DNA from: Nitrosopumilaceae archaeon
GTDB lineage: Archaea; Thermoproteota; Nitrososphaeria; Nitrososphaerales; Nitrosopumilaceae
Assembly: GCA_965214835.1 (NCBI GenBank)
Contig: CBDCCK010000002.1
Coordinates: 480,001-544,000, forward strand
Length of the DNA stretch: 64,000 nt
Direction of reading: 5' to 3'
Positions 16,326-50,276 of the stretch are shown here, one piece after another (position 1 is the first letter of the stretch; every line of letters begins with the position of its first letter). The translations under genes and the position numbers were made by a program. The notes under the pieces are model-generated. The model saw only the letters and a list, made by a program, of their open reading frames with translations, was not told where the DNA came from and did not search any database.

Positions 16326-16348
16326 AAATAAAAATTAGATCATGAGGC

Positions 16349-16470
16349 CAGCCTTCCCAGAAGTACCGCATCAAATCATCCCAAGCTCGAAACAATTCAG
16401 ATGAGGTTTGCCTGCAGATCCGCATGTCGCCTCCTGCACCGCCACGAATCGGTTACTTCTAGGAAGACTG
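16349..16470. mobile_element. MITE family B (about 121 bp, TIR CAGTCTTCCCAGAAGTA)
   Basis: TIRs plus 5-bp target duplication GAGGC. Sits 23 bp upstream of the drmA start. Confidence 0.9.
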
Positions 16471-17390: not shown

Positions 17391-17617
17391 CAGCCTTCCC
17401 AGAAGTACGTGACTCATGACTGTGCAGATGGCGGCGGGCGAATCTGTAGGCATCATAATTTAATTTGTATGAGGTCACCTGCCCCTGCCAATCAGGCACG
17501 AATTGACATCTATGACTATGATTTTCACGCCTAGTCAACAGGGGGACGTGACCTCATACTTTAATTTAATTTGTTTCAAATCCGGGGCCGTTTTCTGGGT
17601 TACTTCTGGGAAGACTG
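17391..17617. mobile_element. MITE family B carrying a nested family C MITE (17467..17559, TIR GTATGAGGTCAC)
   Basis: Outer TIRs as at 16349. The related copy at 19324 lacks the insert. Confidence 0.85.
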
Positions 17618-17799
17618 AGGATGCAGACCACGTTATAGGCTACGGTCGCGTATACGGGATAATGAAGGAGCTGGGACTCGTTACTGCATCCAATGCCAAG
17701 TCACGTCAAAAGAAATGGCTTCGGTACGAGCGCATCTATTCTAATGCCATGTAGCATGTGGGCTGGCACGAGATGAAGGATCCCAGGTTCAGGGGGATC
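17618..17799 (+). pseudogene. IS481/integrase-core (rve) transposase fragment
   Basis: RVYGIMKELGL...KKWLRYERIYSNAM*HVGWH with an internal stop. Bounded by a MITE and an IS5 element. Confidence 0.55.
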
Positions 17800-19265: not shown

Positions 19266-19323
19266 CTTACATCCACTGTGGCTCCGCACATAGACGGCGG
19301 AAGGAAATCTGGGTGCCGACAAT

Positions 19324-19570
19324 CAATCTTCCCAGAAGTAACCCAGAAAGCGGCCACGGATTTGAGACAAATCAAATTATGATGCCTGCAGATTCGCCCA
19401 CCACCATCTGCACAGTCATGAATCACGTACTTCGAGGAAGACTGACAGTCAGTCTTCCCAGAAGTAACCGACTCGTGTAGGTGTAGGCGACCATGTGCAG
19501 ATCTGTAGGAGGCTTTGCTTGAACTGCTTCGAGTTTGAAGTCACTTGATGGGTTACTTCTGGGAAGACTG
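19324..19570. mobile_element. Two adjacent family B MITEs (19324..19444 and 19450..19570)
   Basis: Each is bounded by CA(G/A)TCTTCCCAGAAGTA and its inverse. Confidence 0.85.
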
Positions 19571-19711
19571 GACAGTATACCTTCTTTTTTATACAGTTCA
19601 AGATCACATTATCAAACGAGAAATAGCAAGTTGTGCTTTTGTTAGCCGTTTACCAAATGGCAACCTTGGGAGCTTCACTAAGATTAAATTACTTGTAGTT
19701 CTTGTGGATAG

Positions 19712-20263
19712 ATGTTGGGCGCAGACGTGCATGATACGATTTATTCGGTATTAGACGCAAATAATGGTACAATAAGGGGAAGGACTGCGATCCAAAAACT
19801 CGTCTACCTTTCCAGCAAGAAGATTCCAGAACTTGATGTGCCACCGTATGTGGCTCACTATTACGGGCCGTTCAGCCCAGGCTTGGGATGGGCGCTAGAG
19901 AAGATGGTGTCGTATTCTTTTTTGTACGAAGCCAGCACTCCGGGATCCATATATGATGGATACACATACGGTCTTACCAATGATGGGCAAGAGATAGTCA
20001 AAAAGACAAAAGAGAAGTACAAGGACATGTTTGGGAAGGTTGCTGAGATAGTCAAGACATGCAGGGACTTTTGTGAATTAAAAACCGCCCCATTATCGTA
20101 TGCATCCAAAATCCACTACCTGTTTTGCTCAGAGCATAAAGACGACATGTCCTTTTCAGATGCAGTGGAATATGCCAGAAAGCTCGGATGGAATGTGTCC
20201 AAAGACGACGTAGAGCAGGGCGCACAGCTCTTGGAACGATTAAATCTTGCCAGAATATCATAA
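19712..20263 (+). CDS. YwgA/Panacea (DUF4065)-like protein, putative antitoxin
   Basis: GRTAIQKLVY...HYYGPFS motif. Overlaps the downstream HD gene. Confidence 0.7.
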   Translation: MLGADVHDTIYSVLDANNGTIRGRTAIQKLVYLSSKKIPELDVPPYVAHYYGPFSPGLGWALEKMVSYSFLYEASTPGSIYDGYTYGLTNDGQEIVKKTKEKYKDMFGKVAEIVKTCRDFCELKTAPLSYASKIHYLFCSEHKDDMSFSDAVEYARKLGWNVSKDDVEQGAQLLERLNLARIS

Positions 20264-21563
20264 CAGCTATTTTCAATTCAAATCTATCAGAGATCCTCTG
20301 TACGGGTTCATAGACTTGTCCGAGTTGGAGATGAAAATAATCGACACTCCCGTGTTCCGTAGAATGCATGGCATAAAGCAACTCTCCCACGCGTATTTGG
20401 TATATCCTACAGCAATCCACACCAGATTTGAGCATTCCTTAGGAGCTACCTACTTGGCAGACCGGGTATCAAAACAGATCGCACTGGATGACGAAGTAAG
20501 GGAGATCGTACGACTGGCATGTCTTTTACACGATATCGGCCACGGTCCATTCTCCCACCTGTTTGAAGAGGTGATGAAAAATGTCAACGGAAAAAGGATC
20601 GACCACGACAGGATCTCAATGATGCTGATAAGGGAGGATCATGACATCTCCTCAATACTGGGCGACAAGGCAGAAAAAGTAGTCAATCTGCTAGATCATA
20701 GGCCGGTATCCGGATTGGATTCAAAGATAAGCTCCCTAGCAGCCGATATAGTCTCCGGCCCCCTGGATGTAGACAAGATGGATTACTTGAGACGCGATTC
20801 GTATCATATCGGTGTGGCCTATGGACAGTTTGACCTCCATCGCATAATTCACACCCTTACCAGCACCAACGATCAGATCGAACAAAAGATTTGCGTAGAC
20901 TCGAAAGGCAAAGATGCCATTGAAAGTTACAGGCTGGGCAGATATCTGATGCATGCGCAAGTCTACAAGCATCACACCCGTCTGATTGGAGACAGGATGT
21001 TCCTTCAGGCCCTAGACCTGGCAGTGAACGAGGAGAACATCATACCAAAGGACGCACTGTGCACTGACACGGATCTTAGCAAGTCCCACAAGGAGTTTCT
21101 GAGTTTTTACACATGCCTGGACGATCGCGGACTGTACGACCGTATTCTAGGCAGAGAGAAAAGCAGGGCGGCCCAGATCCTAAAGCGGATACAACGCAGG
21201 AGGCTTCTCAAAAAGGCCATAGAATCTCTGCCCGACAAGGAAATACCCAACGCACAAACACGTGACCGCATATCTAGGATGAGTGAAGACGACATGCAGT
21301 CACTAGCTGATAACATTGCAAAGGATGCAGGCATCGAGAGACACAATGTAATTGTCCACTCTTCAGAAATACCGGTAAATCTTTACGAGGGAGAGATCAT
21401 GATCATGTGGAAGGGGACTCCGAGAAAACTGGACGAATTTTCCCCCATTAGCACCAGCAAATCCACCATCAACAAGTTCTATGTCTTCGGTCCTGACGAT
21501 GAGGCATCCCAACAGAAAATCAGGGAATGCGTAAAAGATCGATTTGGTACATACATTGACTGA
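20247..21563 (+). CDS. HD-domain phosphohydrolase, SAMHD1/YwfO-like dNTPase family
   Basis: RDPLYG, HTRFEHSLG, LLHDIGHGPFSH, DVDKMDYLRRD and VYKH motifs. Confidence 0.9.
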   Translation: MPEYHNSYFQFKSIRDPLYGFIDLSELEMKIIDTPVFRRMHGIKQLSHAYLVYPTAIHTRFEHSLGATYLADRVSKQIALDDEVREIVRLACLLHDIGHGPFSHLFEEVMKNVNGKRIDHDRISMMLIREDHDISSILGDKAEKVVNLLDHRPVSGLDSKISSLAADIVSGPLDVDKMDYLRRDSYHIGVAYGQFDLHRIIHTLTSTNDQIEQKICVDSKGKDAIESYRLGRYLMHAQVYKHHTRLIGDRMFLQALDLAVNEENIIPKDALCTDTDLSKSHKEFLSFYTCLDDRGLYDRILGREKSRAAQILKRIQRRRLLKKAIESLPDKEIPNAQTRDRISRMSEDDMQSLADNIAKDAGIERHNVIVHSSEIPVNLYEGEIMIMWKGTPRKLDEFSPISTSKSTINKFYVFGPDDEASQQKIRECVKDRFGTYID

Positions 21564-21580
21564 CAAGATACCCCCCCCCC

Positions 21581-21791
21581 GTATGAATTCACCTGTACGT
21601 GAAAATACCAAAAATTACACACAGATTCCAACTCTTTAATTAAATTCAGGCAGGACAGGCGAATTCATACTACGTGTCGGCCCAGCTAAGTGAAATGCGC
21701 CAAGAAATCGAGTAAAAACAGAAACCGGGTAGAAGGCACGACGCCTCAGTAACAAGGCAAAAACAAACCCCATTCACATTTCACTTAGCTG
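21581..21791. mobile_element. Two small MITEs (21581..21670, TIR GTATGAATTC; 21683..21791, TIR CAGCTAAGTGAAATG)
   Basis: Terminal inverted repeats read directly. The second has a near-duplication CGGCC/CGACC. Confidence 0.75.
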
Positions 21792-21799
21792 CGACCCCG

Positions 21800-21972
21800 C
21801 ATACCCTTATACGCGGTACTACAGCGGCGCTGCATACACCGATAACGACAGGAAGCTGCCGGGGTGTTTTCAAACCCCTTTCCTAATTTTTTAGTTTTTG
21901 ATGTCTTCAATATGGCAAGCTGTGAGAAATTATTACTAGACTTTGCGTAAACGAAATTAGCAATTTTGCCCT
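21800..21972 (+). repeat. Partial att core plus conserved roughly 170-bp element left end (copy 1)
   Basis: Aligns along its length with 30437..30612. Confidence 0.8.
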
Positions 21973-22042
21973 ATATAGGCATAAAAGCCCACAGTTACAC
22001 GCAAATTCACACCTATTTGTTTAAGGGAAGATGACCTCGTAC

Positions 22043-22215
22043 GAGCAGTGCACGACGAACAGTGCAAGGTCTCCCCTTCTCATGTTTTTCATGTGCTTGA
22101 GTGCGAGGTTGTTATGGACTCCGTCCCAGACGGTTTTCCCGTCGGTCCTGAGCTGCTCAAGACTGCATCCACGTGGCCCGCCCGGCTCCTGCTTTGCCAG
22201 CCAGTGGTTTACCAT
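22043..22215 (-). pseudogene. EVE-domain protein, 3' truncated
   Basis: HWLAKQEP...WDGVHNNLA..HMKNMRRGDLALF. The gene ends at a GTACGAGGTCA MITE-like terminus. Confidence 0.7.
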
Positions 22216-22279
22216 GAAACACTGCAGGGTTTTTGGCGTTTAACTGTCTTTCTAAAGGCATCTTGCATAACCGTGCCTG

Positions 22280-22387
22280 AACGCAGTTTGGGCTCTGAAA
22301 TCTCAGACGTGAGTCTTGCCACCTCGGAGGCCCCCTCCCGGGCAGATTCGTGCCTGAAACCAGGAACGGCTTGATTCGAGCTGTTAT
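22280..22387. mobile_element. Degenerate family D MITE
   Basis: Similar to 28970..29080 and ends in CGAGCTGTTA. Confidence 0.6.
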
Positions 22388-22388
22388 T

Positions 22389-24220
22389 TTTCAATCCTTT
22401 CGCCTCACCTCCTTGCAGACTGTGGTTCGACGAACCCCAGAAGCTGCACTCATCCATCGTAAGAGTTTACCCCTCATCCGTATAATTTAGATTGAGCACA
22501 AGGCCAATTTTTGATCACCATCTGGATCCATATGCATCCAGATCACACCTGTATTCATTGCCTGATTCAGAGACCAAGATACTACGCGACGAGTTGGCCC
22601 GCACCATAGCCGAATTGGGCAGGAAGGACAGGATCATCGCAGACAAGGATCAGACGATAGCCATGCTTGTCGAACAGATGGCCGAGTCCTCGGTGACAAT
22701 CGTGATGCAGGCATCACAGATCAGCTGGTACAGGCAAAAGGGATCAGAGGGGGTAGCAGCATCTGAGGCGCAGACTGCCGAACTGAAAGCAGAAAACCAG
22801 CAGCTCAGACAGCACATCAAATATTACGAAAACCCGCACACCCCATCCTCGCAGAACTCGATTCCGACCAGGCAGAAAAAGACTGCTGCTGCAAAGGCAT
22901 CAGGCAACGTACCGGCATCTGCAAAGGCAAAGCCGGGCCGCAGGCAGGGACACGAGGGGATATCACACAAGAGAATGCCGACCGAATTTGTAAAGCACTG
23001 CCCCAAAAAGTGCGGCAAGTGCGGCAGCACCAACATGAAGAAGCCGAAAAAGATCTTCTCCAAGCTTGTGACCGATACCCCCAAGAGGCCCGAGCCGGTC
23101 ACGACACAGCACACCGCATACAGGCGCAAATGCGCCGACTGCGGCAACATGTGTATCGAAGACGACAGGTCATGGAACGTGCCGGGAACCGAGTTTGGAC
23201 CAAACATCACGGGGATGATGGCCGCAATACGCGTGGCACCTGCCTCCATACAGGCCACGGCCACACTGTGCTCAGAAATCCTGGGCATGGATGTCTCAGA
23301 GGCAGGCGTGCTGCAGTGCCTGAGGGCCGGCGCCAATGCGATAAAGCCCGGCGTAGAGAGCATCAGGCAGGCCATCAGGGATTCTGATTATCTGCATATT
23401 GACGAGACTGCCATGCCATACAACGGCAGGACGGCCCGCATATGGGTGGTCGTGGGCAGGAACAGGGACGGCACCGTCACCGGCGTCCACACGCTGGCCG
23501 CACCCAGTAGGGGCAGGGCCGTAGTTGACATGAACTTTCCGTATTATGACAAACCGGTCACAGTCGACGGGTACGGCGTATACGCCGCATTCAAGACCAG
23601 GCAGTGGTGCCGGATCCGCATACTCCGGGAGGCCAGGGAGGCCTGCAAGGCTTCCAGGCAGGCCCACGCGCTGTATGATACACTCAAGAAAAAGTTCATC
23701 CATGCCAAGGGGCTGGGGCCGCCGGAGGAGGAGGGCGCCGCCCGGCACGACATGCTGGTGGCAGAAACGCGCGGGCTGGCCGAGGCATTCGGCAGGGAGG
23801 CCGGATGCGAGAGCTTTGCCACAAAGCTTGGGAACGCCTCTGAATTTCTCTACACGTTCATACTGCATCCGGGTATGGAGCCCACCAACAACCTAGCCGA
23901 GCGCATGCTGAGGCCGTCCGTAATTGCGCGCAAGGTATTCCAAGGACTCCGTACCATGGAAGGCATGGAGATGTTCACCGTATTGATGACGTGCGCGATG
24001 AACTGGCGCGCCCGGGGGTGCGGCGTGAGGGAAATGCTCGTCAAGACCCTGACTGGCAGCGTCGCCTGAGGGGTAAACTCGTACCATCCATCGGTGCGCA
24101 AGGCACATGAACACAGCAGCCCGGATATCCCCATTCGACAGATGGTGCGTAAGGCACTTGTCGCGTAAGGGGCTTGATCCATTATCATGGCTGTGGCTGG
24201 GTGCTTTTATCATGTGTTTA
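22389..24220 (-). ncRNA. Orphan IS110 non-coding end (bridge-RNA-like; 22389..22458 + 24093..24220), split by IS66
   Basis: Colinear with 34453..34649, including the SD, both hairpin loops and the subterminal IR. No transposase is attached. Confidence 0.75.
22459..24084 (+). mobile_element. IS66-family (single-ORF) element; transposase at 22492..24069
   Basis: TIR GTAAGAGTTTACCCCTCA and 8-bp duplication CATCCATC. Coiled coil, Zn finger, HIDET and PTNNLAER motifs. Confidence 0.92.
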
Positions 24221-24239
24221 ACCCCCCTCATACCACATA

Positions 24240-24332
24240 GTATGTGGTCACGTCCCCCCGTTGGTCAGGCGTGAAAATCATAATCATACATGCCAATTCG
24301 TGCCTGATTGGTGGGGGTAGGTGACCTCGTAC
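24240..24332. mobile_element. Family C MITE (93 bp)
   Basis: Inverted homologue of 17467..17559. Confidence 0.8.
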
Positions 24333-24505
24333 CCACAATAGGCTCGAATTCAAGCCAAATAGGCATGTTATGATTATAAATCTAGAAAAAGTATGTTATT
24401 CTAGAATTATACATCTTCTAAAAACTGTATAATCTACATAAAATGGTGTGTAATGATTATAAATGAAGAAAAAGCCTTAAATTCTAGATTTAGGTTCATT
24501 TTACA

Positions 24506-26422
24506 ATGGTTAGAAAGGTGGACATAACTCCAGACAAGTCACTCATTCAAAAATTAGGACTGGTAGGATACAGTACAGAACAGGCCGTTGCAGAATTATT
24601 GGACAATTCCATCGATGCTAGGATTGCAGACAAGGAGGAAGAAATTGTGGTCCAATTAAAACCGGGAGAAAAAAGGATCGAGGTCACGGATAATGGGCAT
24701 GGAATGGATGGAGGGGGTCTTGCCGATGCAATGACAATTGCGGGTGGGGCAAAAACGGCAGGGAAGTTAGGACAGTTTGGCATGGGAATGAAAAGTGCAT
24801 GCTCGGCATTGGCTAAAAATTTCATTATAGTAACATCAAGGGTTGGTTCAGATAAGGAATACCAAGTAGAATACGATGAGGACAAATGGCTGTCAGACAA
24901 GTCGCAAAACTGGCAAAATTTCCAAATGTACGAAAGGGAATTAAACAAAGGGCAAAACTGGCATGGCACGACAATCACACTAAGGAATCTAAAGGTTCCA
25001 ATATATCCAAATCAGGTATCAAAATTCAAAAACAGCTTCGGAATACGCTATGCCCCATACTTGCAATCTAATCAGGTATCAATACGAATCAACAGCGTAC
25101 CTTGCAAGCCAGAAAAACCAGACACTGCAGAAGGCAGCATGACCAGAGTTAGGATCAAGCTGTCAAACAACAATGAGGTTTGGGGCCATGTGGAGCTACT
25201 TAAAAAAAGATCCATAAAGGGACACTATGGAATTCATTTGATCAGGAACGGGAGATTAATCAAAGCACACGAGAAGTTTGGGTTTTCTGCACATCCGGAA
25301 AATGCAAGAATAATTGGAGAATTGAACTTGGATCACGTGCCGGTTAATTTTAACAAGAGTGAATTCATCGAAGAGAGTCCAGAGTACCAAGAAGTGCTAA
25401 AGGCGTTTAAGATGTCTGCGGAATTAAAAGATACTATGCGCCTGTCAAAATCAAAAAAAGTGATATTCGCATCGGTAAAATCGGTGTTTGATTATTTTGA
25501 TGAAAAATCACCACACCAGCATCTAGACAGCAGTGTACAGGCAAAAATTGCAGCAGACATTTTGAGCAAGACCCCCAGATTGGCCATGAAGGCAGGCGGC
25601 AAGCCAATAGAAATACGCCTGGATGCACTAGATGAGGCCCCTCTTTATACAATAGGCAAGAGCAGTTCAGGCATTACAATAACCATAAACAAAAACAACA
25701 ACGCGTTCAAGTTTGTAAAAAACCCATTGTTTTTAATTGGCATGATAGCGTCAGAGGTCAAAGTTCTCACGAGTCGGCCAGAACTAGAGGATGCAATACG
25801 GCAACGAAATCAGATCTTTGGCGAATTCATGCAAGAATGGTCTAAAAAACCAAGCAAAAGAGAGGAGTCCAGGGACAGGCAGGCAGAGCTACCCACCATT
25901 GCAAACTATAATCTGGTTGATGAGTTATTTGAAGCCCATGAGCATCTTAGGGAAAAGATCGGATTTAGGTTTCAGTTTACAGCACTATCAACACTGGCAC
26001 CGTATCTGCACAGTCTGCGTGACAAGATCATATATACGATACATACAGAGCCGGCGAAAGGAGAATACGTGGCAGATACATTAATTGAAAAATTTGGAGA
26101 AAAGTTCACCGTTGTAAACAAGCCGGATCTCAACACATTAAATGCACTGTTAAAAATCCCAGCAACAGGTACGATAATTGCAGTAAGGGAGTATTCGGTG
26201 ATCAGGGGATCAACAATCGCATTGCCGGAAAAGGCATATCTTGATTTGGTAAATGAGATGGTAACACATGACATTCCCCTAGACAAAATGGAGCTTCGAA
26301 GAATATTTGCAGCCATGCAAAGATACAACCTCATAGATTATGGGGAGTTAAGAACATATGCAAATTTTATCAAAAAGGCCGGTACGCTTGAAGTTATACT
26401 GGGTGGTAAGCTACAGTGGTAG
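24506..26422 (+). CDS. GHKL (MORC/MutL-like) ATPase with a putative AbiEi-like C-terminal domain
   Basis: ELLDNSIDA, DNGHGM, GQFGMGMK and HGT motifs. C-terminal ALPEKAYLDL. Confidence 0.8.
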   Translation: MVRKVDITPDKSLIQKLGLVGYSTEQAVAELLDNSIDARIADKEEEIVVQLKPGEKRIEVTDNGHGMDGGGLADAMTIAGGAKTAGKLGQFGMGMKSACSALAKNFIIVTSRVGSDKEYQVEYDEDKWLSDKSQNWQNFQMYERELNKGQNWHGTTITLRNLKVPIYPNQVSKFKNSFGIRYAPYLQSNQVSIRINSVPCKPEKPDTAEGSMTRVRIKLSNNNEVWGHVELLKKRSIKGHYGIHLIRNGRLIKAHEKFGFSAHPENARIIGELNLDHVPVNFNKSEFIEESPEYQEVLKAFKMSAELKDTMRLSKSKKVIFASVKSVFDYFDEKSPHQHLDSSVQAKIAADILSKTPRLAMKAGGKPIEIRLDALDEAPLYTIGKSSSGITITINKNNNAFKFVKNPLFLIGMIASEVKVLTSRPELEDAIRQRNQIFGEFMQEWSKKPSKREESRDRQAELPTIANYNLVDELFEAHEHLREKIGFRFQFTALSTLAPYLHSLRDKIIYTIHTEPAKGEYVADTLIEKFGEKFTVVNKPDLNTLNALLKIPATGTIIAVREYSVIRGSTIALPEKAYLDLVNEMVTHDIPLDKMELRRIFAAMQRYNLIDYGELRTYANFIKKAGTLEVILGGKLQW

Positions 26423-28937
26423 AATTTCACTTCAAGGATCAGCTAGAACGGGCCAACATAGAAAAAATCCAGAAGGAAAATAATTTTCAAAAACCGTATC
26501 CTGTTGAGCAATTCATCATGGACTTTGAGGCACTAGCGCACATCAAAGAAAAGATACCTGATTGTACAGTCAAAGGCGGAATGGCGGTGCCATTTCACGT
26601 CAAAGGCAAGGAACTGCGCAGACTAAGCGTGGATATAGACATGGTAACCAGTCACGCCAGAGAGCAAGTAGTAGCGGCCATGAAGGAGGTCAGAGATAAA
26701 CTCAGTGGCAAAATAACCATTCCGGAAAATCACATGCCGGAAAGAGAAAGAGCGGATAAACAATTACCACTGCTGACATACTATTGCAGCTATAAATCAA
26801 ACTTTCAAGAAAACGCGCAAATAAAAATAGAGATTTTTTATAACAATGCGCTTGAAATAAGGACAAAAGAGATTTCCAACTCGGAAGAAATCATAGGGTT
26901 TACAATAGACTTTCCAATCACAGTTTATGATCATGATCAGTAGTTGAAAATGTACCCCCTTTTTAAGTGTCTGAATGTTTTGAACAAGTTGACATGATTT
27001 TTTCACCAATCGAGCTATAAACAGCGGTGTTCCTGTCTACCTTGATAATGAACCAAACCCAACAGAAACACCACACAAGGTACGGTGAGGCCGGATTTAA
27101 ATTCTTGGTTACCGCAGTAGGCATGCTGAAAATCAAGTTCTCCTCAAGACACAACGCCATGTGGGGCCTGGAAGACGCCTCCCGCCTGATTGCATCCATG
27201 TCGGAGCGTTCCGCATGTGCGCACTATACCGCCCAAAAGCTTGCACTTCTTGCATCAGAAGGCGCCGGGGCCGCGGTGCCCAGCTCGGCCTGGCTTCTTG
27301 CAAAGCTGGGGCACGCAAGACTGTCCACGATGGAGAAAAGGTGCGATGCAATGCTGCATTACACGGCCGCCGAGGCGGTGGGCAGGCAGCTTTGCTCCCT
27401 CCAAAGGAGCCACAAGGCGCCTGTCCTTGCCATAGACGAGACCAAGCTGCCCAGATACGACAAGAAAACCGACATAAAGCACCTGGTAAAGTCAAAGCGC
27501 GACAGGGGCACCATCAACTATGAGCAGTACATGACATGCAAGCTGACATCCAAGGCCGGCGCCGACGTGCATACGGCCTGCCGCATGGTGACCGAGGGCG
27601 ACAAACAGGCCGATCTGGTGCGTAATATGCTCAAAAAATGCGCCGATCTGGGCATTACGCCCAGGCTCGGGTCAAGGCGCAGCATCATCCTGCTTGACAG
27701 GGGGTTCTTTTCGGTCGATGTAATGGATGCCATATCCGAACCCGGGTTTGCATTCATCATGCCCGCAGTCAAGACGCCGGGGATAAAGAGGGCCATAGTG
27801 CAGCGCGCCCGCGGCAAGAGAAAGGCAGTATCAAGGTATACCATGAGGTCGTCAGACGGCAAAGAGTTCACGTTCACGCTGGTCATCAAGAAGATCTCAA
27901 GGTCCAAGGCAAAGAACGTCTTTGACAGATACCACGTGTTTGCGACCACGGTGCGCTGCTGCAGCTATCGGCAGCTGTTCTGCCATGTGACAAGAGAGTA
28001 CCGGAACAGGTGGGGCATAGAGACCGGATACCGCTGTGCCAAGAGCGTCAGGCCGCGGACCACCAGCAGGAATCCTGTCCTGCGTGTGCTTTTGTTTTAC
28101 ATGTCGCTTGCAGTATGCAACATATGGCTGACAATGAGGGACTCGGGAGACCCAAAGACCCGCGTCATGGCGCTGCTGACTCTGATGTATGCCGTGGTTC
28201 TGTATTCGTGCTGCCTCCGTGCGCCGGATGCCGACAGGATCGGGGTGGGGCGACGGCGGCATGATCCCGGCTAGACGGATTTATGGTGTACATTTTCAAC
28301 TACTGATGATGCACTGATAGGAGACAAAATGACTACACTTGCCTTTGGTACCATAGGGATAGATCCACAAAGGGAGTCAGACGTTCCAAAACAAATCTAT
28401 GACATCAGCAATTTGGTTAACTCGACATCAGGGCAAATATCCATGTACGAAATTATCGGTGCGTTTGAAAAAATTGCAAGTGAGGAAATATCTTACTATA
28501 CAAGGGAAGCGCCATCGTTTGAACAGGTATTAGACGATCTTGTCACGTTTCCAGAAAGCCTGCTCGTCAAGGATAAAGGCAGGTTAAAGCTGAATTCATC
28601 GTATCAGGGAAGATTTTCTAAATTCATAACCGAATTGTTAGGAAATACAAAATACAGGGAATATACACATGTGTCAGATATTTTATTTTTGAAGATCATG
28701 AGCGTCCTGATACAAAAATATTTCAAAAAAGAGATGGACATAGAGAACATCAACGGTAAAATTAACGAAATAATAACTGAACGAAGCAGGATATCGAAAT
28801 TGGAAGGATCAGAAGAAACTAGGGAGCTGCATAAAATTGTTGGAAAATATGGGAAAAAATCCGAGCAGGGAAAAATTATTAAAAACATGCTTCCCGTTCA
28901 AGCATATCTATATGATCAAATATTGGAGCTTGGATAA
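26416..28937 (+). pseudogene. AbiEii/AbiGii-like nucleotidyltransferase, interrupted by an IS
   Basis: KGG...RRLSVDID motif. Removing the IS restores in-frame VYDHD-ALIGDKMTTL...KQIYD. Confidence 0.85.
26938..28305 (+). mobile_element. ISH3-family IS; transposase at about 27027..28274
   Basis: Perfect 18-bp TIR CAGTAGTTGAAAATGTAC and 5-bp duplication ATGAT. Motifs AIDET, LDRGF, YRNRWGIETGYR. Confidence 0.92.
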
Positions 28938-28969
28938 TCAAACAGTGTCTGAAATCTCAGGAATTTTTG

Positions 28970-29080
28970 GTAACAGCTCGGGCTCTGGAAGTTCAGGCAC
29001 GAATTTTGCCATCAAAGAAGGCCGATCAAACAGAATTTGTGCCTAAAATTGTAAATCACTTCCGAAGCCCGAGCTGTTAC
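28970..29080. mobile_element. Family D MITE (111 bp, IS66-type ends)
   Basis: TIR GTAACAGCTCGGGCT and 8-bp duplication AATTTTTG. Confidence 0.9.
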
Positions 29081-29094
29081 AATTTTTGACTCTA

Positions 29095-29225
29095 CTGGCG
29101 ACCATTGAAAATTTCGCCTCCCTTACACGTTGCGCTCAAGATACTTGTAGATGTCAACCTCGATGGAACACGTTCTAAAGCATTCCGAGACGGCCCTTTT
29201 GAGGTGATCTGGCGTGTCGTAAAAG
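29095..29225 (-). mobile_element. IS630 terminal fragment
   Basis: Homologous to 30804..30935. Confidence 0.8.
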
Positions 29226-29228
29226 GGG

Positions 29229-29358
29229 GGGGTTGTCGCCTAATTCCACTTGTTTGACCCAATCTGCACGTTTTTCTGAACTTCCGCCCTTTTGCACACC
29301 TGATCCATATGGCATCTCAACGGTTTTCAGGAATTCTGGCGAATTAGGCGATAACCCC
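29229..29358. mobile_element. Family A MITE (inverted)
   Basis: Reverse complement of 1399..1528. Confidence 0.88.
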
Positions 29359-30082
29359 CATATCATCATACACCTCCTTCATAAAAGACAAAGTTGGTAT
29401 TACGGATCAGAACTCACTGGCAACGCTAACAAAATCCCTTGCAGATACAGTATCCCCTCCCGGATTAGGCCAGGTAAACCGAGTCCATTTCCACATCAGG
29501 GCAGTTGCAAGAAAAATGCTCTCCCAAGTAAAACCCACGCTGACTACGACAGAGATTCAGGAGATCGTGGAGATATTAACAGAGCGAACATTTATTCACG
29601 GACATTCCATCGGGAGGCACGAAGCAAAACAGATAGGATTGCTAGTCGACGATATGGATGAAGTGGTGGAAAAATTATGCTGGAATCTGTTCCTGCAATA
29701 CGAGAAGGATTTGAAGCTTAACTCGTTTACAGATCCTCTGGATTATTTTGACCGTGACGATCAGGATGAATATGTGGAGGATGGTGCAATCCTTGCATGT
29801 ATAGAATCGGCAAACAAATGCCACGAATACTCTGGATCCCTACAGCTGAAGAAAGTCAGGCAGCCTCCGCCACAGCTTAATCTCAACGTCAATGTTCCGA
29901 TCCAACTCCCTGCAAACATTCTGAGCCAAAATATCCCGGAAGAAACTCGACGTATGCTGCAAGAGATGCAACAGAACGTAGCTAGCCAAGTAGGCTACAT
30001 GATTACAGATCAGCTAAGAAAAAGCATGCCGGTAGTTGGAGTAAACATCAGCAACATGAAAATGATGTGGAGAGAGGTTTGA
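29359..30082 (+). pseudogene. 5'-truncated SDH/ClpP-fold serine protease-like gene
   Basis: The frame is open back to the MITE. HGHSIGRHEAKQIGL motif. Confidence 0.6.
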
Positions 30083-30307
30083 CAACTCTCGTGTTTGGGC
30101 AAAGGAATACATCTTCTACTAATACATGTTGATCTCTGAAAGCCAAATTCATAATAGGACTCTTTTTCTGCTTCAACATCGGCGATCCTCTCGGTATGTG
30201 TATAGTTCTCAAGATCGAATATCGGAGTGGTTATGGTGATCTTGGTGTTTTTGCCATTCATCCTGTTTACTCTACGTTGTCTCCCCTTTTATAATAGCTA
30301 CCTATGT

Positions 30308-30428
30308 CAGTCTTCCCAGAAGTAACCGACTCGTGGCGGTGCAGGAGGCGACATGCGGATCTGCAGGCAGCCTCATTTGAATTGTTTCGAACCTAGGATA
30401 ATTTGATGCGGTACTTCTGGGAAGACTG
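30308..30428. mobile_element. Family B MITE
   Basis: Perfect TIRs. Inverted homologue of 16349. Confidence 0.9.
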
Positions 30429-30649
30429 TGGCGCGACATACCCTTATATGCGGCACCACGGCGGCGCCGCATACACCGATAACGACAGGAAGCTACCGGG
30501 GTGCTTTCAAAACCCCTTTCCTAATTTTTTTATTTTTGATATCTTCAATATGGCAAGCGGTAAGAAGTCATTACTAGATTTTATGCGTAAACGAAAGTAG
30601 CAATCTTGCCCCTGTCCCCCACAGACAAAGAGAGGGCAGAGGTCACCTC

Positions 30650-30778
30650 GAGGTTGTTTCCTAATTCGTCAGAATTCCTGAAAACCGTTGAGATACCACA
30701 TGGATCAGGCGTGCAAAAGGGCGAAAATTCAGAAAAACATACAGATTGAACAGGCAAGTGGAATTAGGAAACAACCCC
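30650..30778. mobile_element. Family A MITE
   Basis: TIRs plus 9-bp duplication GGTCACCTC. Confidence 0.9.
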
Positions 30779-30803
30779 GGTCACCTCATCTTAAGCAACT
30801 ATA

Positions 30804-31893
30804 CTGATGACCATTGAAAATTTCGCCTCCCTTACAAGCTGCGCTCAAGATACTTGTAGATGTCAACCCTGATGGAACACGTCCTAAAGTATTCCGAGAC
30901 GGCCTTTTTGAGGTGATCCACCGTGTCGTAAAAGGCAGACGTGACCAGCCTGTACTTGGCATCCTTCCAGACTGCCTCTATGGCGCTCAGCTCCGGCCTA
31001 GCTACCGGCAGGTACAGCAAGACAACGTCGGGATTTTTCTTTAGGTATCTGCGGACCTTCTTGGTCTTGTGCTGTGCTGCGTTGTCCATCACCATCAGGA
31101 CCTTTCCCCACTTTTTGTGCGCCTGTTTAAGATAATGCACAAAGTTTGCGCTGTTGAACCTGTCGTACGTGCGCATCAGCCTGGTTCCGTCGTCTGCAAT
31201 CGTCCCGTATACCACGACGCGCTCCCTTCTGCCGGATCGTTCCACCTCGATCCTGTCCCCCACGGGCGACCAGAACTTTTTGCCGTCCCTTCCCGTACTG
31301 ACGAATATCGATTCGTCCTGTACGGTTATCCTAAATCCGCGCCTTTTTGCAAGCTTTATCGCAGTTTTTGCCTCTCTTTGCCACCGTCTTACAGCTTTTG
31401 CGTCGGCAGCATCTGCCAGCTTGGTAGTTGATGTCTTTAGCGAAAACCCCATCGCGCGCAGGATCCTCCTGATGCTTCCCACGCTGTATGTGACATGCAG
31501 CCTGTGGCGCACCCAGTTGCACAGCTTCTTCGGGGTGAGCTTTTCCATCCTGCGCAGCCTCGTGGCGATCTTTTTTATCCTGCCGACCGGAACCTTTGGT
31601 TTTTTGCCCCTGTTGGGGGAGTCACGGAGGCCCTCGATGCCGTCAAGCTCGAACCTTTCAACCCACATCTGTACGGTGCGCTGTGTCACGTCGGCAATCT
31701 CCGCAGTATGTGCGGTGGTGTTGCCAAGCAGTACGGAGCGCACCGCCATGATTCTGGTGTGAGTCTTGAGATCCTTTTCGACATGCATGGCATCCGTGAG
31801 GATTTTCGTCTTGTTCATGCCGGGAGTGACATGGTGGGGAGCTATAAACCTTTACAAGATGTGTGATCAGGCGAAATTTTCAATGACCATCAG
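30804..31893 (-). mobile_element. IS630-family element; transposase at 30832..31818
   Basis: TIR CTGATG.CATTGAAAATTTCGCCT with TA flanks. HTH plus QDES, MDNA..H and PELSAIE motifs. Confidence 0.92.
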
Positions 31894-32100
31894 TATAGGC
31901 ACGAATTTGCAGTAATTTGCATACTGCCGATCACAAGTTCGTGAATAAAATCGATCCCCTTCGGATGAACCTTCTGACATCAAGCTGAGTGCTGGACGTT
32001 CTCAGATATTCTGACAGCGCGCGCCTCATCGCCTCAAGCGCGGAATAGTACTCGGAGACCAAGCATGTCCCTCTTTGACTGGTGCCCGTATTCCTCAATC

Positions 32101-32213
32101 ATAACAGCTCGTGATTCTGAAGCTCAGGCGTGGTTTTGATTCCAAAATACAGGATGTCTTGGATGTAAATCATGCCTAGAATCACAAATCACTTCACAAA
32201 CACGAACTGTCAC
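32101..32213. mobile_element. Degenerate family D MITE
   Basis: TAACAGCTCG...CGAACTGTCAC, similar to 28970. Confidence 0.6.
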
Positions 32214-32289
32214 AAAGATACATGATTCATTAGTGTTTGATGGGTTATGACAGATATCTAAATCTGCTAGAAATCAGTTTCACATCATT

Positions 32290-32916
32290 TTATTTCTTTA
32301 AATCCCAAACACTTTTCTTTTCTAGTAATTCTTGAATAAACTCCACGATTTCTTTTACCTCTTTTGCATATTCGGGATAAATATCAAATGCCAACCATTC
32401 AGAAATTATGGAATAAACATATTTAGTCATTCGACCATATTGTGCTAGATACAATAGTCCAGCTACTGGAAGTTTAACATACCATAATTCTTTAAAATTT
32501 AACATTCTGCTATTTGATTTGGATGAATGTCTTCTAAGCCATTTTGAGATTTCGTTAATTAATTCCTTATTTGATTCGGAATCGTTATCTTGGTTCTTTG
32601 CAATTAAAACAGTAAATCTAACAGAATCCAAAGGAATTATTGTAGAAAATCCATTAATTTCCAAGTAACATATAGCTGCAAGTAAGCCGGTTCTTTTATT
32701 TCCATCATAGAACGGATGCATTCTAATAATTCCTTCCATTAGACTAGCTGCTTGCTTGAAGATATTGTCATATGGCATCAACGAACCGATTTGTTGAGTT
32801 GGTCTATCTGCAATAGATGAAAGTAACCCTTTATCTTTCACACCTCGAAATACATTAAAATGCTCCTCAACAATAGTGTGAAGTTGTAACAAATCTTCTT
32901 GGGATAACTGTTTCAT
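32290..32916 (-). CDS. Fic/Doc-family toxin
   Basis: HPFYDGNKRTG motif. Confidence 0.9.
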   Translation of the reverse strand: MKQLSQEDLLQLHTIVEEHFNVFRGVKDKGLLSSIADRPTQQIGSLMPYDNIFKQAASLMEGIIRMHPFYDGNKRTGLLAAICYLEINGFSTIIPLDSVRFTVLIAKNQDNDSESNKELINEISKWLRRHSSKSNSRMLNFKELWYVKLPVAGLLYLAQYGRMTKYVYSIISEWLAFDIYPEYAKEVKEIVEFIQELLEKKSVWDLKK

Positions 32917-33017
32917 TAAATTTCAGCCAGTCTTTCAAATACTGCCTTGTTCTTGTCTATGGTTCTAATGGCGATTTCTCTTAATTTTTCTTGATGAATC
33001 TTCTCACCTTTTACCAT
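32916..33017 (-). CDS. Putative 33-aa Phd-like antitoxin peptide (not in the ORF track)
   Basis: MVKGEKIHQEKLREIAIRTIDKNKAVFERLAEI*, coupled to doc by a TAATG overlap. Confidence 0.6.
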   Translation of the reverse strand: MVKGEKIHQEKLREIAIRTIDKNKAVFERLAEI

Positions 33018-33105
33018 ACTTACCACACATAAAATTAGTATTTAATTGTAACAGATCGGGTTTATGAATGTGTTATATGGAAATAATGTCCACTATTCAT
33101 TGATG

Positions 33106-33198
33106 GTGCGAGTTTACCCCTCAGGCGACAAGGCTGGCCGGAACCTTCATGATCGTGCCTATTACGCCGTATTCCTCGAGATGGGGTAAACTTATGCA
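33106..33198. mobile_element. IS66-derived miniature remnant
   Basis: GTGCGAGTTTACCCCTCAGGCGAC matches the IS66 right end. Degenerate second TIR GGGGTAAACT. Confidence 0.55.
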
Positions 33199-33379
33199 GC
33201 TGTGATATGGGAGACACTTAAAAATGGGGTGCATTTTCATCCATGATAAAAACCCCGGCCGGTAACACGGCGACGTTCCTTGCTTCTTCTGATCCGTGCC
33301 TAGTAGGTCGGGCCGTGCTTTATAACTAACGCTAGCAACACGCACGGATCATTGGGCAGGTGGCGGGGCAGAGGCGATC

Positions 33380-34459
33380 CTACGCCGTCGTCCCGGCCAG
33401 CTCAGTTACCCTCTTGATCTTCTTGTTGTACAAGGCATTGTTACATGATGAGTACGGAGTCTTTGTCATCAACATGTGCCAGATTATCCTAAGCATCTTG
33501 GTTGCAGCGTGGGTTATCGCTATGACATGGCTGTTGCCGTTCCTTCTGCGAACCCTCTCGTAGAACTCCTTCATCCTGTCGTCGTACTGTACGGCGACGT
33601 TGGCTATCTGGGTCATCACCCAGTTGATCCTGCGGTTTGCATCCTTTTTCATGTGACCGTGATACTCGCGGTCCCCCGACTGGTATACCCTTGGACACAG
33701 GCCGGCCCAGGACACAAGATGGCTCGGTGATGGAAACCTGGCTATGTCGCCGACCTCTGCTAGCAACAGCATTGCTGCAAAGGCCTCTATCCCAGTCATG
33801 CTCATCAGTATCTTGGCATACTCGCTGAGTCCTGCCTGTCTTCCTATGTCCTTCTCTGCCTGATCTATCTCCTTTGTGACAGATGCAATCCTCCTAGTGC
33901 AACTTGCCAGTATTCTGTTGTCGTTTGGCATGTCCAGCTCTGTCTCGGAAAGCTTTTGTATGGCCTTCCTAGAGTACATTGTGGATGCGTCTATGATTAT
34001 ATCGTACTTGTCAAGCAGGCTGTGTAGCCCGTTTATGACTGCGGTTCTGTCCTGTACAAGACGTATCCTGTACCTCATCAGCTCCCTGACATCCCTCAGG
34101 TCTGCAGGAGCTACGTAGCAGCGCGGTATCATTCCCGCCCTGAGTGTGTTGGCTATCTTCCTTGCATCTATGGGATCAGTCTTTGCGCTGGTCTCCGATA
34201 TTATCTTCATCTTGAGTGTGTTTGCCAGCAGTATGGGTATGTGATGATCCTCAAACGCCCTGAATGTCTTTAGCCACATGTTGCCCGTTGACTCGCATGC
34301 GGCCTGGCATTTCTTGTACTTTTTTTTCAGCCGGACAGCAAGCTTTGCTGCCTCCTTGTACGTGTTGTCATACGAGCCCTCCTTAAGCACGTGTCCCTTG
34401 GCGTCTACAACGCACACTGCACATCTTCTTTTTCCAATGTCTATTCCTATGCTTTTCAA
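33380..34459 (-). CDS. IS110 recombinase (DEDD RuvC-like + Tnp20)
   Basis: GIDIG, CESTG, KTDPIDA and GLCP...QSG motifs. Likely TTG start at 34459 after GGAGGTGA. Confidence 0.92.
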   Translation of the reverse strand: MKSIGIDIGKRRCAVCVVDAKGHVLKEGSYDNTYKEAAKLAVRLKKKYKKCQAACESTGNMWLKTFRAFEDHHIPILLANTLKMKIISETSAKTDPIDARKIANTLRAGMIPRCYVAPADLRDVRELMRYRIRLVQDRTAVINGLHSLLDKYDIIIDASTMYSRKAIQKLSETELDMPNDNRILASCTRRIASVTKEIDQAEKDIGRQAGLSEYAKILMSMTGIEAFAAMLLLAEVGDIARFPSPSHLVSWAGLCPRVYQSGDREYHGHMKKDANRRINWVMTQIANVAVQYDDRMKEFYERVRRRNGNSHVIAITHAATKMLRIIWHMLMTKTPYSSCNNALYNKKIKRVTELAGTTA

Positions 34460-34499
34460 TCCTTTTGTTTCACCTCCTTTCAGATTATGGTTTGATAGA

Positions 34500-34640
34500 T
34501 CAGAAGCTGCATTCATCCATCAGTGCGCGAAGCACAGGAACACAGCAGCTCGGATATCCCCATTCAACTACGAGTGCGCGAAGCACATGAAAATGAAGGG
34601 GTTGATCCATCACCCTGACTACGGCGGGGGTGTTTTTATC
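34500..34640 (-). ncRNA. Putative bridge RNA with target-binding and donor-binding loops
   Basis: Two stems, each with an internal loop and a GTGC-N5-GCAC cap. The four loop strands match the element's target and donor. Transcript ends are unknown. Confidence 0.85.
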
Positions 34641-34703
34641 ATGTGTTCAACTACTGATTCACTATCAATCCTTAAAACACACCCTAATGTATTTTGGGTA
34701 TCA

Positions 34704-49868: not shown

Positions 49869-50276
49869 GCCGGACTGGGTTGTGGGAAAAATGTACCGCG
49901 GCTGCAGGATGCAGCCACATCTTGCCATTGAATGATACGCACATCAAAAAACGGATCATGGTTTTGGCACATCGTGCCTGTCTTGATAAAAAAGAGCGTA
50001 CGAGGTCGCCTCCCCCTAGCAGTCAGGCACGAATTGCATGCAACCGCAGCAGTTGAAAATGTGCATTCCGTGTACCGTCTGTGTGGCAGTGCTTTTCCCC
50101 ATCTGCGGCTCTGCACGCATAAAATTCTGCATGCCGGGGCCCCATGAGACGGCGACCATAAGAAACAGTACGTTTTCAACCCAAAATGGACGGAGAGGGA
50201 CATCAGCGACTAGCGGGCCTAGTTTTCACATAACACAAGCGTGTCAGGGCCTGCCAGGCCGGCCTGCAGGCCAGCA

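Follow-up and report, generated by a model that had tools for sequence, protein, structure and literature searches.

The DNA analysed here (the window) is a stretch of 64 kb from the 3.2-Mb genome of a Nitrosopumilaceae archaeon, corresponding to G000:C2:480001-544000, where G000 denotes the archaeon's own genome. Positions refer to the window unless another frame is given. That the host is an archaeon is shown by its small-subunit ribosomal RNA, which reaches 1452.6 bits with Rfam's archaeal model RF01959 and 1089.2 bits with the bacterial one, RF00177. The locus of interest lies on the minus strand in two pieces, 22392-22458 and 24093-24218, and is confirmed as the left non-coding end of an IS110-family element; we call it the orphan. 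Very probably it is the inactivated left-end fragment of a bridge-RNA-guided insertion sequence of that family, from a lineage distinct from the intact copies resident in the genome. Its pieces comprise a 5′ stem-loop region, a target-binding loop (TBL) and a donor-binding loop (DBL), the last interrupted by an IS66-family element. The fragment ends at a MITE, a miniature transposable element with inverted repeats. The positions of all parts, and of the IS110-family elements used for comparison, are collected in Table 1.

Table 1. Parts of the orphan in RNA sense, adjoining elements and related IS110-family elements (UTR, untranslated region; RBS, ribosome-binding site; ORF, open reading frame)
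Feature	Position	Strand	Remarks
Left flank, GGGGGGT in RNA sense	24221-24227	-	From sequence; left half of the terminus of a ~131-nt MITE (MITE-B)
Core dinucleotide position, TA	24219-24220	-	From left-junction alignment
Left-end terminus AACACATGATAAAAG, subterminal inverted repeat inside, then 5′ stem-loop region	24173-24218	-	From alignment; helix in family members
TBL, whole	24129-24172	-	From sequence; helices 3 and 4 paired 96.6% and 95.5%; order CCCC, 5′ guide, stem-loop GUGC-CUUAC-GCAC (24145-24157), 3′ guide, GGGG
TBL 5′ guide UUACGCGACAA	24158-24168	-	
TBL 3′ guide CAUCUGUCGAAU	24133-24144	-	
DBL, 5′ part	24093-24120	-	From sequence; helices 5 and 6 of the family structure; order GCUGC, 5′ guide, stem-loop GUGC-CUUGC-GCAC, first base of 3′ guide
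DBL 5′ guide UGUGUUCAU	24107-24115	-	
IS66-family element, 1626 bp	22459-24084	+	Single ORF 22492-24069; inserted in the 3′ donor guide
DBL, 3′ remainder: rest of 3′ guide GAUGGAUGAGU and closing GCAGC	22443-22458	-	From sequence and alignment
Transposase 5′ UTR remnant	22392-22442	-	RBS GGAGGTGA at 22405-22412; TTG start at 22392-22394
Complete 109-nt MITE, inverted ends like GTAACAGCTCGGGCTCTGGAAG	22279-22387		Adjoins the truncation point; 33-39 BLAST hits cover 22284-22372
Intact IS110-family element	33240-34647	-	Core TG at 34648-49 and 33238-39
Intact transposase	33380-34459	-	359 aa from TTG, after GGAGGTGA
Presumed bridge-RNA region of the intact element	34501-34647	-	Within the 190-nt left end
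Mini IS110 elements, complete	G000:C2:639987-640363, 2139575-2139947, 2955616-2955990, 3124154-3124524		
Mini IS110 elements, truncated	G000:C2:10106-10410, 655395-655671		

Starting from the flank, the strand passes the core position, which reads TA in the orphan and TG in all other left-end copies tabulated, and continues through the 5′ stem-loop region into the TBL and then the DBL. As judged from its letters, the orphan has the structure of a bridge RNA gene, with two predicted and conserved internal-loop hairpins, the DBL being physically split by the IS66 element. On the plus strand the stems read GCTGC (22443-47) with GCAGC (24116-20), CCCC (24129-32) with GGGG (24169-72), and GTGC-N5-GCAC twice. 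In the alignment, homology to the transposase stops at TTGAAAA, 4-5 nt past the TTG start. There is no recombinase gene; the RBS, the TTG and these few nucleotides are followed by the MITE, and the orphan is not an autonomous IS110 element. Both ends of this MITE are visible in an alignment of 26 copies and no transposase sequence lies beyond it. The right end and right flank of the orphan are lost.

The intervening element belongs to the IS66 family. It encodes a transposase matching Pfam DDE_Tnp_IS66 (PF03050, E 2.9e-24), and has 18-nt inverted ends (terminal repeats GTAAGAGTTTACCCCTCA and GTACGAGTTTACCCCTCA) and an 8-bp target duplication, CATCCATC, at 22451-22458 and 24085-24092. The duplicated base pairs are GAUGGAUG of the DBL 3′ guide. 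The ORF scores 163.6 bits on NCBIfam NF033517, under the 180-bit cut-off; it is the only ORF in the element, and no search for TnpA/TnpB partners was made.

If the IS66 element is left out, the two parts of the orphan align colinearly with the intact element at 33240-34647, along its non-coding end. The transposase of that element contains the Pfam domains DEDD_Tnp_IS110 (PF01548) and Transposase_20 (PF02371), scores 234.2 bits against a cut-off of 140 on NCBIfam NF033542 ('IS110 family RNA-guided transposase'), and matches the ISCro4 (E 8e-9) and IS621 (E 1.6e-8) transposases in the PDB. A BLAST search with the intact left end returns the orphan as two pieces, one of 139 nt with 77% identity (E 3.8e-22) and one of 71 nt with 80% identity (E 9.6e-11). 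A covariance model built from 22 other copies, from which the orphan was excluded, scores it at 81.3 bits (E 1.1e-16); the 3′ end of that alignment runs into the IS66 element.

The differences between orphan and intact copy are distributed very unevenly. All of the 32 stem positions are identical, as are 18 of 21 in the donor loop and 89 of 115 elsewhere, the linkers and UTR being 23% diverged, while only 4 of 14 variable target-guide columns agree. The guide columns differ significantly from all positions outside the TBL, of which 139 of 168 are identical (Fisher p=3.8e-5). The loops closed by the GTGC-N5-GCAC stems are also changed, to gtaag and gcaag from the gcgaa of the intact copy. Since the stems are unaltered yet the unpaired scaffold has diverged by 23%, the divergence arose under selection on the fold, and the orphan thus represents a separate, once-active lineage and not the decay of a resident copy. 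For the same reason, that the stems carry no changes, simple decay is unlikely. In a scaffold tree the orphan forms a branch by itself, outside both of the full-length groups resident in the genome, though the alignment is short and branch support was not assessed; in every segment its scaffold is 80-88% identical to the resident elements. Minimum free energy (MFE) folding recovers the two-loop architecture for the intact copy and a mini element but not for the orphan with IS66 removed, and the MFE z-scores are weak (-1.8 to +0.3).

An initial annotation, made from the letters of the window, had called the locus an orphan second bridge RNA with the same donor loop and different target guides. 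Most of what it described is borne out: the colinearity after removal of IS66, the preserved stems with altered loop bases, the loss of the transposase at its start codon, the replacement of the target guides by TTCGACAGA (24134-24142) and TGTCGCGT (24159-24166), and the concentration of the divergence in the guides, with the qualification that linkers and UTR have also diverged. Its statement that both donor guides are retained holds for TCATCCAT, which is identical in both copies, while TGAACACA of the orphan reads GGAACACA in the intact one. There is indeed a second bridge RNA gene of the same IS110 lineage, in which the scaffold is conserved, the donor loop has hardly changed and the target loop has been replaced, but it is not intact, having an IS66 element inside the 3′ donor guide, no right end and TA at the core.

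Predicted fold and guide logic of the family

The covariance model finds 26 matches in the archaeon's own genome. Eleven are full-length copies of two guide groups, and the rest comprise one diverged fourth group, some minis without transposase, and fragments. In the BLAST search with the intact left end ~9 short left-end fragments are seen besides the orphan. Relics of left ends are therefore common in this genome, and the orphan is ordinary in that respect. Across the host's family the model detects the RNA in 27 of 151 genomes including its own (26 of 150 others), from 11 of 27 genera; the tally takes in one unpublished genome, G102, which entered no other analysis.

The predicted structure has two hairpins, and in the 22 sequences 93.9% of the cells are paired, compared with at most 55.8% when the partners are slid. 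Five pairs change on both sides, all in group-4 rows. Cells with G:U outnumber those with A:C (69 against 20), which favours an RNA on the transposase strand. From these sequences and the literature on IS621, we infer that the family is guided by its RNA. Across copies the target-guide columns are variable and the donor loop is nearly fixed.

The junction alignments relate each loop to DNA in a consistent manner. The 3′ side of the TBL reads U-[6 nt identical to the left flank]-UG-AAU, the core being TG, and its 5′ side is antisense to [A]-TG-[right flank, 6-8 nt], where A is the last base of the right end. In intact copies the 3′ side of the DBL, U-GAUGGA-UG-AAU, equals the right end CATGGA-TG, and its 5′ side, UGUGUU-CC-U, is antisense to the left end AACACA. 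For the intact copy in the window the guides CGUAGU-UG and TG-AAAAUGAA face flanks AGTAGT-TG and TG-AAAATGCA, agreeing at 5 of 6 and 7 of 8 positions. Group 2 occupies hairpin repeats of the form TAGCCTGT-TG-CATAACC (8 full-length copies tabulated), and group 4 occupies repeats of the form TTACTTC-TG-GGAAGACTG, which are abundant in the window. A palindromic repeat containing the group-4 target as GGTTACTTC-TG-GGAAGACTG recurs in many copies, at 16348-16470, 17391-17620, 19323-19573 and 30305-30431.

The correspondence holds when guides are compared with flanks in bulk. In the own genome the left guide matches its cognate flank at a mean of 4.14 of 6 positions (n=22), compared with 2.52 for non-cognate pairs (n=402), and the right guide at 5.00 of 8 (n=13) compared with 2.46 (n=82); two rows with a guide indel were dropped. 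Across the archaeal family, taking one element per genome or guide group and dropping three rows with an unparsable guide, the left-guide 7-mer occurs with at most one mismatch within 50 nt upstream in 22 of 29 cognate and 53 of 802 non-cognate pairs. The left guides of the other 7 of the 29 elements have at least two mismatches.

On this evidence the left end would encode an RNA from the transposase strand, with a 5′ stem-loop followed by two internal-loop hairpins. The TBL would read the two halves of the target, its 5′ side antisense to the right half and its 3′ side identical to [left flank]-TG-AA. The DBL would read the element's own ends likewise, AACACA on the left and ATGGA-TG on the right, and the recombinase would then join donor and target at the TG core.

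The minis are 371-377 bp long and have no transposase, keeping the whole bridge RNA gene and a right end; loci L038/L099 and L032 of genome G002 are counted with them. Their donor guide GAUAGA-UG and right end CATAGA-TG have changed together relative to GAUGGA-UG and CATGGA-TG of the full-length copies, which suggests that minis are mobilized in trans with their own guides. In two of them, 639987-640363 and 3124154-3124524, the left flank, TAGTTTGT-TG, is of the hairpin-repeat type, and the right flank, TCGCCTAATTC, is of the MITE-terminus type and disagrees with the right guide of the mini itself (1 of 8).

Reading of the orphan guides

The reverse complement of the 5′, or right-target, guide of the orphan is T-TG-TCGCGTAA. 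The own genome contains 125 termini of the form TGYYGCSTAATT, in which the octamer following TG is TCGCCTAA in 104 (7 of 8 to the guide) and TCGCGTAA in four (8 of 8). GGGGT precedes 81 of these termini and GGGGGT 38, against a background of 621 in 703,923 for GGGGT before TG or TA. An inverted partner at a distance of 117-122 nt exists for 43 of the 63 termini on the plus strand, which identifies the termini as the ends of a MITE of ~131 nt. Its terminus reads GGGGT-TG-TCGCCTAATTC, and the orphan flank GGGGGGT is its left half. In the window this MITE, with inverted ends GGGGTTGTCGCCTAATTC, is seen at 1404-1523 and at 29234.

The ~131-nt MITE is thus the apparent target of the orphan's lineage, with insertion 7 nt inside the terminus. 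The right guide of the ancestor would have read TG-TCGCGTAA in this abundant repeat, and insertion into such a terminus would have left the flank GGGGGGT. A deletion up to another MITE may then have removed everything past the start codon, and an IS66 element would later have split the remainder inside the DBL 3′ guide. The relic is probably no longer mobile, and a complete bridge RNA could presumably not be made from it as it stands. In the donor loop the 5′ guide UGUGUU-CA is complementary to TG-AACACA at the left end of the orphan, where the core reads TA. The right junction is absent, and the orphan thus does not show one core dinucleotide at both junctions.

One mini, G000:C2:2955616-2955990, offers a close parallel. 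It shares 10 of the 11 bases of the 5′ side of the TBL with the orphan and has the same right-target octamer. It sits between GGGGGT-TG and TG-CTGCGTAATTC, and its left guide, CGAGGU, is itself a variant of the MITE terminus.

A number of observations speak against the reading given above, in part or as a whole. The assignment of the MITE draws on one guide and a 7-nt flank, the right end and its flank being lost. While the right guide agrees with 104 termini at 7 of 8 positions, the left guide AUCUGU-CG agrees with the flank GGGGGT-TA at 2 of 6 positions plus 0 of 2 at the core, and its best match upstream has two mismatches, which is typical of non-cognate pairs. The covariation in the stems comes from one divergent subfamily of three rows. 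Among relatives the right guide has an exact match to the right flank in 0 of 20 cases, no better than non-cognate pairs, in an underpowered test (the loci stop near the right end and the 8-mer was sought in 635 nt). Lastly, no full-length element with the orphan's guides was found in the own genome, in 60 relatives searched by BLAST or in 29 fetched family loci. In the BLAST search against the 60 relatives the best match other than itself was 79% identical (the own mini), with 77% in genome G002. The 5′ guide in its stem context, sought as an exact pattern, gave three hits in GTDB species genomes, none with IS110 features, and none in JGI metagenome contigs, where a conserved-scaffold pattern also gave none; such exact scans overlook diverged copies.

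The implied full target, ATCTGT-TG/CG-TCGCGTAA, was sought in the own genome allowing up to three mismatches. The best match, ATCCGT-TG-TCGCGTAA with a single mismatch, is at G000:C2:479524, 477 nt upstream of the window, and a paralogue at 1466966 has two mismatches. By our arithmetic ~0.07 hits with at most one mismatch are expected. Both lie inside paralogous Fic/Doc-like coding sequence and outside any repeat, and they were set aside as probable chance matches. No empty hybrid site combining an A-type left half with the MITE right half was found in the own genome.

The initial annotation had noted that the present flank does not match the new guide. That caveat stands for the left guide, and the insertion is not fully explained by the orphan's own TBL because this guide misfits. 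However, since the flank and the right guide point to the same repeat, half of the caveat is resolved. The annotation had also named, as something that would refute it, the lack of an intact element that bears these guides and sits at a target fitting them; in the strict sense this is the outcome, none having turned up in the searches described above. The search for the implied target that it had suggested ends in the probable chance match described above.

What could account for the mismatched left guide? The candidates are a chimeric loop, the use of a foreign guide or a half match, and a relaxed need for the left guide. If recombination or gene conversion within the TBL stem-loop had joined a MITE-type right guide to a left guide of the hairpin-repeat type, both halves would be explained. 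The left guide AUCUGU is identical (6 of 6) to those of the copies at C2:655676 and 2139575, and agrees at 5 of 6 positions with the ACCUGU of the eight group-2 copies, both of the hairpin-repeat group; the right-target octamer is that of mini 2955990, and the flank agrees with the right guide alone. However, segment identities reveal no mosaic, the identity of the 5′ segment being 0.74 with the MITE-targeting mini and 0.80 with group 2, and the 3′ segments equally similar to all. The crossover would need to fall within 13 nt, and we regard such a chimera as unlikely. That the insertion was instead directed by another element's TBL in trans, or by a match to one half, likewise seems unlikely. 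Mini 2955990 has both guides of the MITE type, TBL and DBL are reported to act from separate RNAs (PMC11208158), and half-match insertion has been reported for IS621 (bioRxiv 10.64898/2026.08.31.748434); the family elements with at least two left-guide mismatches are in keeping with this. On the other hand, the right guide of the orphan already fits the site, so that a foreign TBL is unnecessary.

Two further proposals concern what the relic does now and whether the hairpins are guides at all. A transcript of the TBL alone (24129-24218) might load onto a resident recombinase, so that the relic would still work as a guide-only locus and, with the DBL RNAs of the residents, could direct intact copies or minis to MITE termini. 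The relic's 5′ stem-loop and TBL are found upstream of the point where IS66 breaks it, with 16 of 16 TBL stem positions and the P1 helix whole, and the scaffold resembles that of the residents in every segment. According to PMC11208158, recombination by IS621 worked in vitro with TBL and DBL on separate RNAs, and a single synaptic complex draws its two loops from different RNA molecules. This is nonetheless very unlikely. The IS621 promoter is described as forming at the circle junction (PMC11208160), which the fragment cannot form; each of the two target guides indicates a different kind of site, and among the repeats no empty one fits both; the core position of the left guide is CG; and the common left-end debris in the genome argues against selection. 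Equally remote is the broader notion of a stand-alone cassette retargeting resident recombinases or minis to MITE termini, with left and right half-guides shuffled as modules between elements. If true, the cassette would be a mobile-element analogue of an orphan CRISPR array, and the shuffling would account for a TBL whose halves belong to different target families. It is hardly credible that the hairpins are protein-binding or UTR structures and the guide-flank matches leftovers of target duplication. The weak z-scores would suit such a view, but in four resident subfamilies and ~25 lineages of other genomes the loops vary together with the flanks, the letters that match are 70-110 nt within the element and hence not at a duplication, and the transposase is one that NCBIfam classes as RNA-guided. 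An inactivated left end of a distinct bridge-RNA-guided lineage is thus retained as the best explanation of the orphan.

The IS66 insertion and the surrounding island

The genome contains 11 full-length IS66 copies, the nearest to the inserted one being 99.3% identical, and the insertion is therefore recent. A preference of IS66 for IS110 donor loops was considered and ruled out. The other 10 full-length copies sit at unrelated sites, and the landing in the donor guide is accordingly a coincidence. Direct repeats of 9 bp flank seven of these ten. One IS66 copy elsewhere is inserted in a 94-nt palindromic repeat of the type GTATGNGGTCAC...GTGACCTCGTAC; a repeat of this type is found at 24239-24332, 20 nt outside the orphan flank, and also at 17467-17560 and 49998-50036. 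A 92-bp element at 33106-33197 has both inverted ends of an IS66 member (GTGCGAGTTTACCCCTCAGG ... GGGGTAAACTTATGC) and looks like a MITE derivative; a gap of ~45 bp separates it from the intact IS110 element, at the right end of the latter.

Contigs of sequencing runs X1, X3, X7 and X8 were placed on 21500-24800, X1 and X3 being perhaps from the source sample. A contig of 159 nt from X1 and X3 spans 22330-22488, the junction of MITE, left end and IS66, without a difference. No contig in the four runs joins 22458 to 24093, and no uninterrupted allele is seen in them, the cover being fragmented by repeats.

An unoccupied target site of the group-2 type, ATCT-TG-CATAACCGTGCCTGAACGC, lies at 22262-22290 and adjoins the MITE that truncates the orphan. 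A second and different family of short repeats is present at 21683-21791; this and the repeat at 22279-22387 have ~35-39 BLAST hits each. The genes around the orphan (20247-21563, 24506-26943, 30832-31818 and 32290-32916) have the appearance of a defence and mobile-element island, including an HD-domain protein, a MORC-like GHKL ATPase, an AbiEii-like nucleotidyltransferase and a Fic protein, together with an IS630-like DDE_3 transposase with inverted ends. A Rfam scan of 20000-36000 at E<=1 found no family, and no match to a bridge-RNA model.

Relation to IS621 and IS1111-type elements

In several respects the archaeal elements resemble IS621 and the IS110 bridge RNA, as these are described in PMC11208160 and PMC11208158. 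The RNA gene is in the left end, upstream of a DEDD/Ser recombinase and in the same orientation. A 5′ stem-loop is followed by the target loop and then the donor loop, and the two guides of each loop read opposite strands and overlap the core dinucleotide, the targets being repeats. The core complement is followed by one or two 'handshake'-like bases.

There are also differences from IS621 as it is presented there. Within each loop the archaeal lineage has its guides in the reverse order: antisense to the right flank on the 5′ side, and with the sense of the left flank on the 3′ side. This order is found in all resident groups and, by the left-guide test, in 22 of 29 family elements, and places the lineage outside a narrow, IS621-like definition of the IS110 group. 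The core is TG in place of the CT of IS621, and the subterminal inverted repeat is 12-15 bp long compared with 2-3 bp in the IS110 group. In the element with the bridge-RNA region 34501-34647 and in family copies a repeat of 12 nt, CATGATAAAAAC, is found near both ends. The host moreover is an archaeon, and the orphan itself lacks a recombinase and right end and has a split donor loop.

Long subterminal inverted repeats, and strand-matching segments in the order reverse to the IS110 type, are reported for seekRNA elements of the IS1111 type (ISEc11 and others) in PMC11187229. The same source compares ISEc11 with ISXne4, where retargeting likewise takes the form of replaced guide letters on a conserved stem. 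In these traits the archaeal lineage looks like a mixture of the IS1111 type (guide order and long repeats) with the upstream RNA of the IS110 type.

Transposase-less IS110 derivatives that are dispersed over the genome and have an element-derived small-RNA gene and both ends are known from MITEPpu9 and the orphan ssr9 copies of ISPpu9 (PMC12288879). According to that source MITEPpu9 carries the regulatory small RNA Ssr9, from downstream of tnp, and not a bridge RNA. Unlike MITEPpu9, the present orphan is no mini-element, since its RBS and start codon are kept and its right end is missing; true minis occur elsewhere in the genome. Programmability through a bridge RNA, and natural retargeting, have already been published (PMC11208160, PMC11187229). 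The initial annotation had seen in the locus independent support for programmability; the tracking of flanks by guides across the family is consistent with that, while the orphan is an example of the principle only. It is ordinary debris, which illustrates known programmability without extending it. A member of the IS110/IS1111 family reportedly inserts into another mobile element's terminal repeat, always at one position, and compared with that case the target here is an archaeal MITE of ~131 nt.

Taken alone the orphan carries little weight, since decayed IS110 left ends are numerous in this archaeal genome, which is rich in repeats. What makes it useful is that it draws attention to an archaeal IS110 lineage whose resident members have at least four target specificities, every one directed at a genomic repeat of its own. 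The features of this lineage, namely its guide order, subterminal repeats, upstream RNA and minis that bear a bridge RNA, could inform the relation between IS110 and IS1111 elements and the evolution of guide halves, and the lineage would provide a natural test set for the tolerance of mismatches in the left guide.

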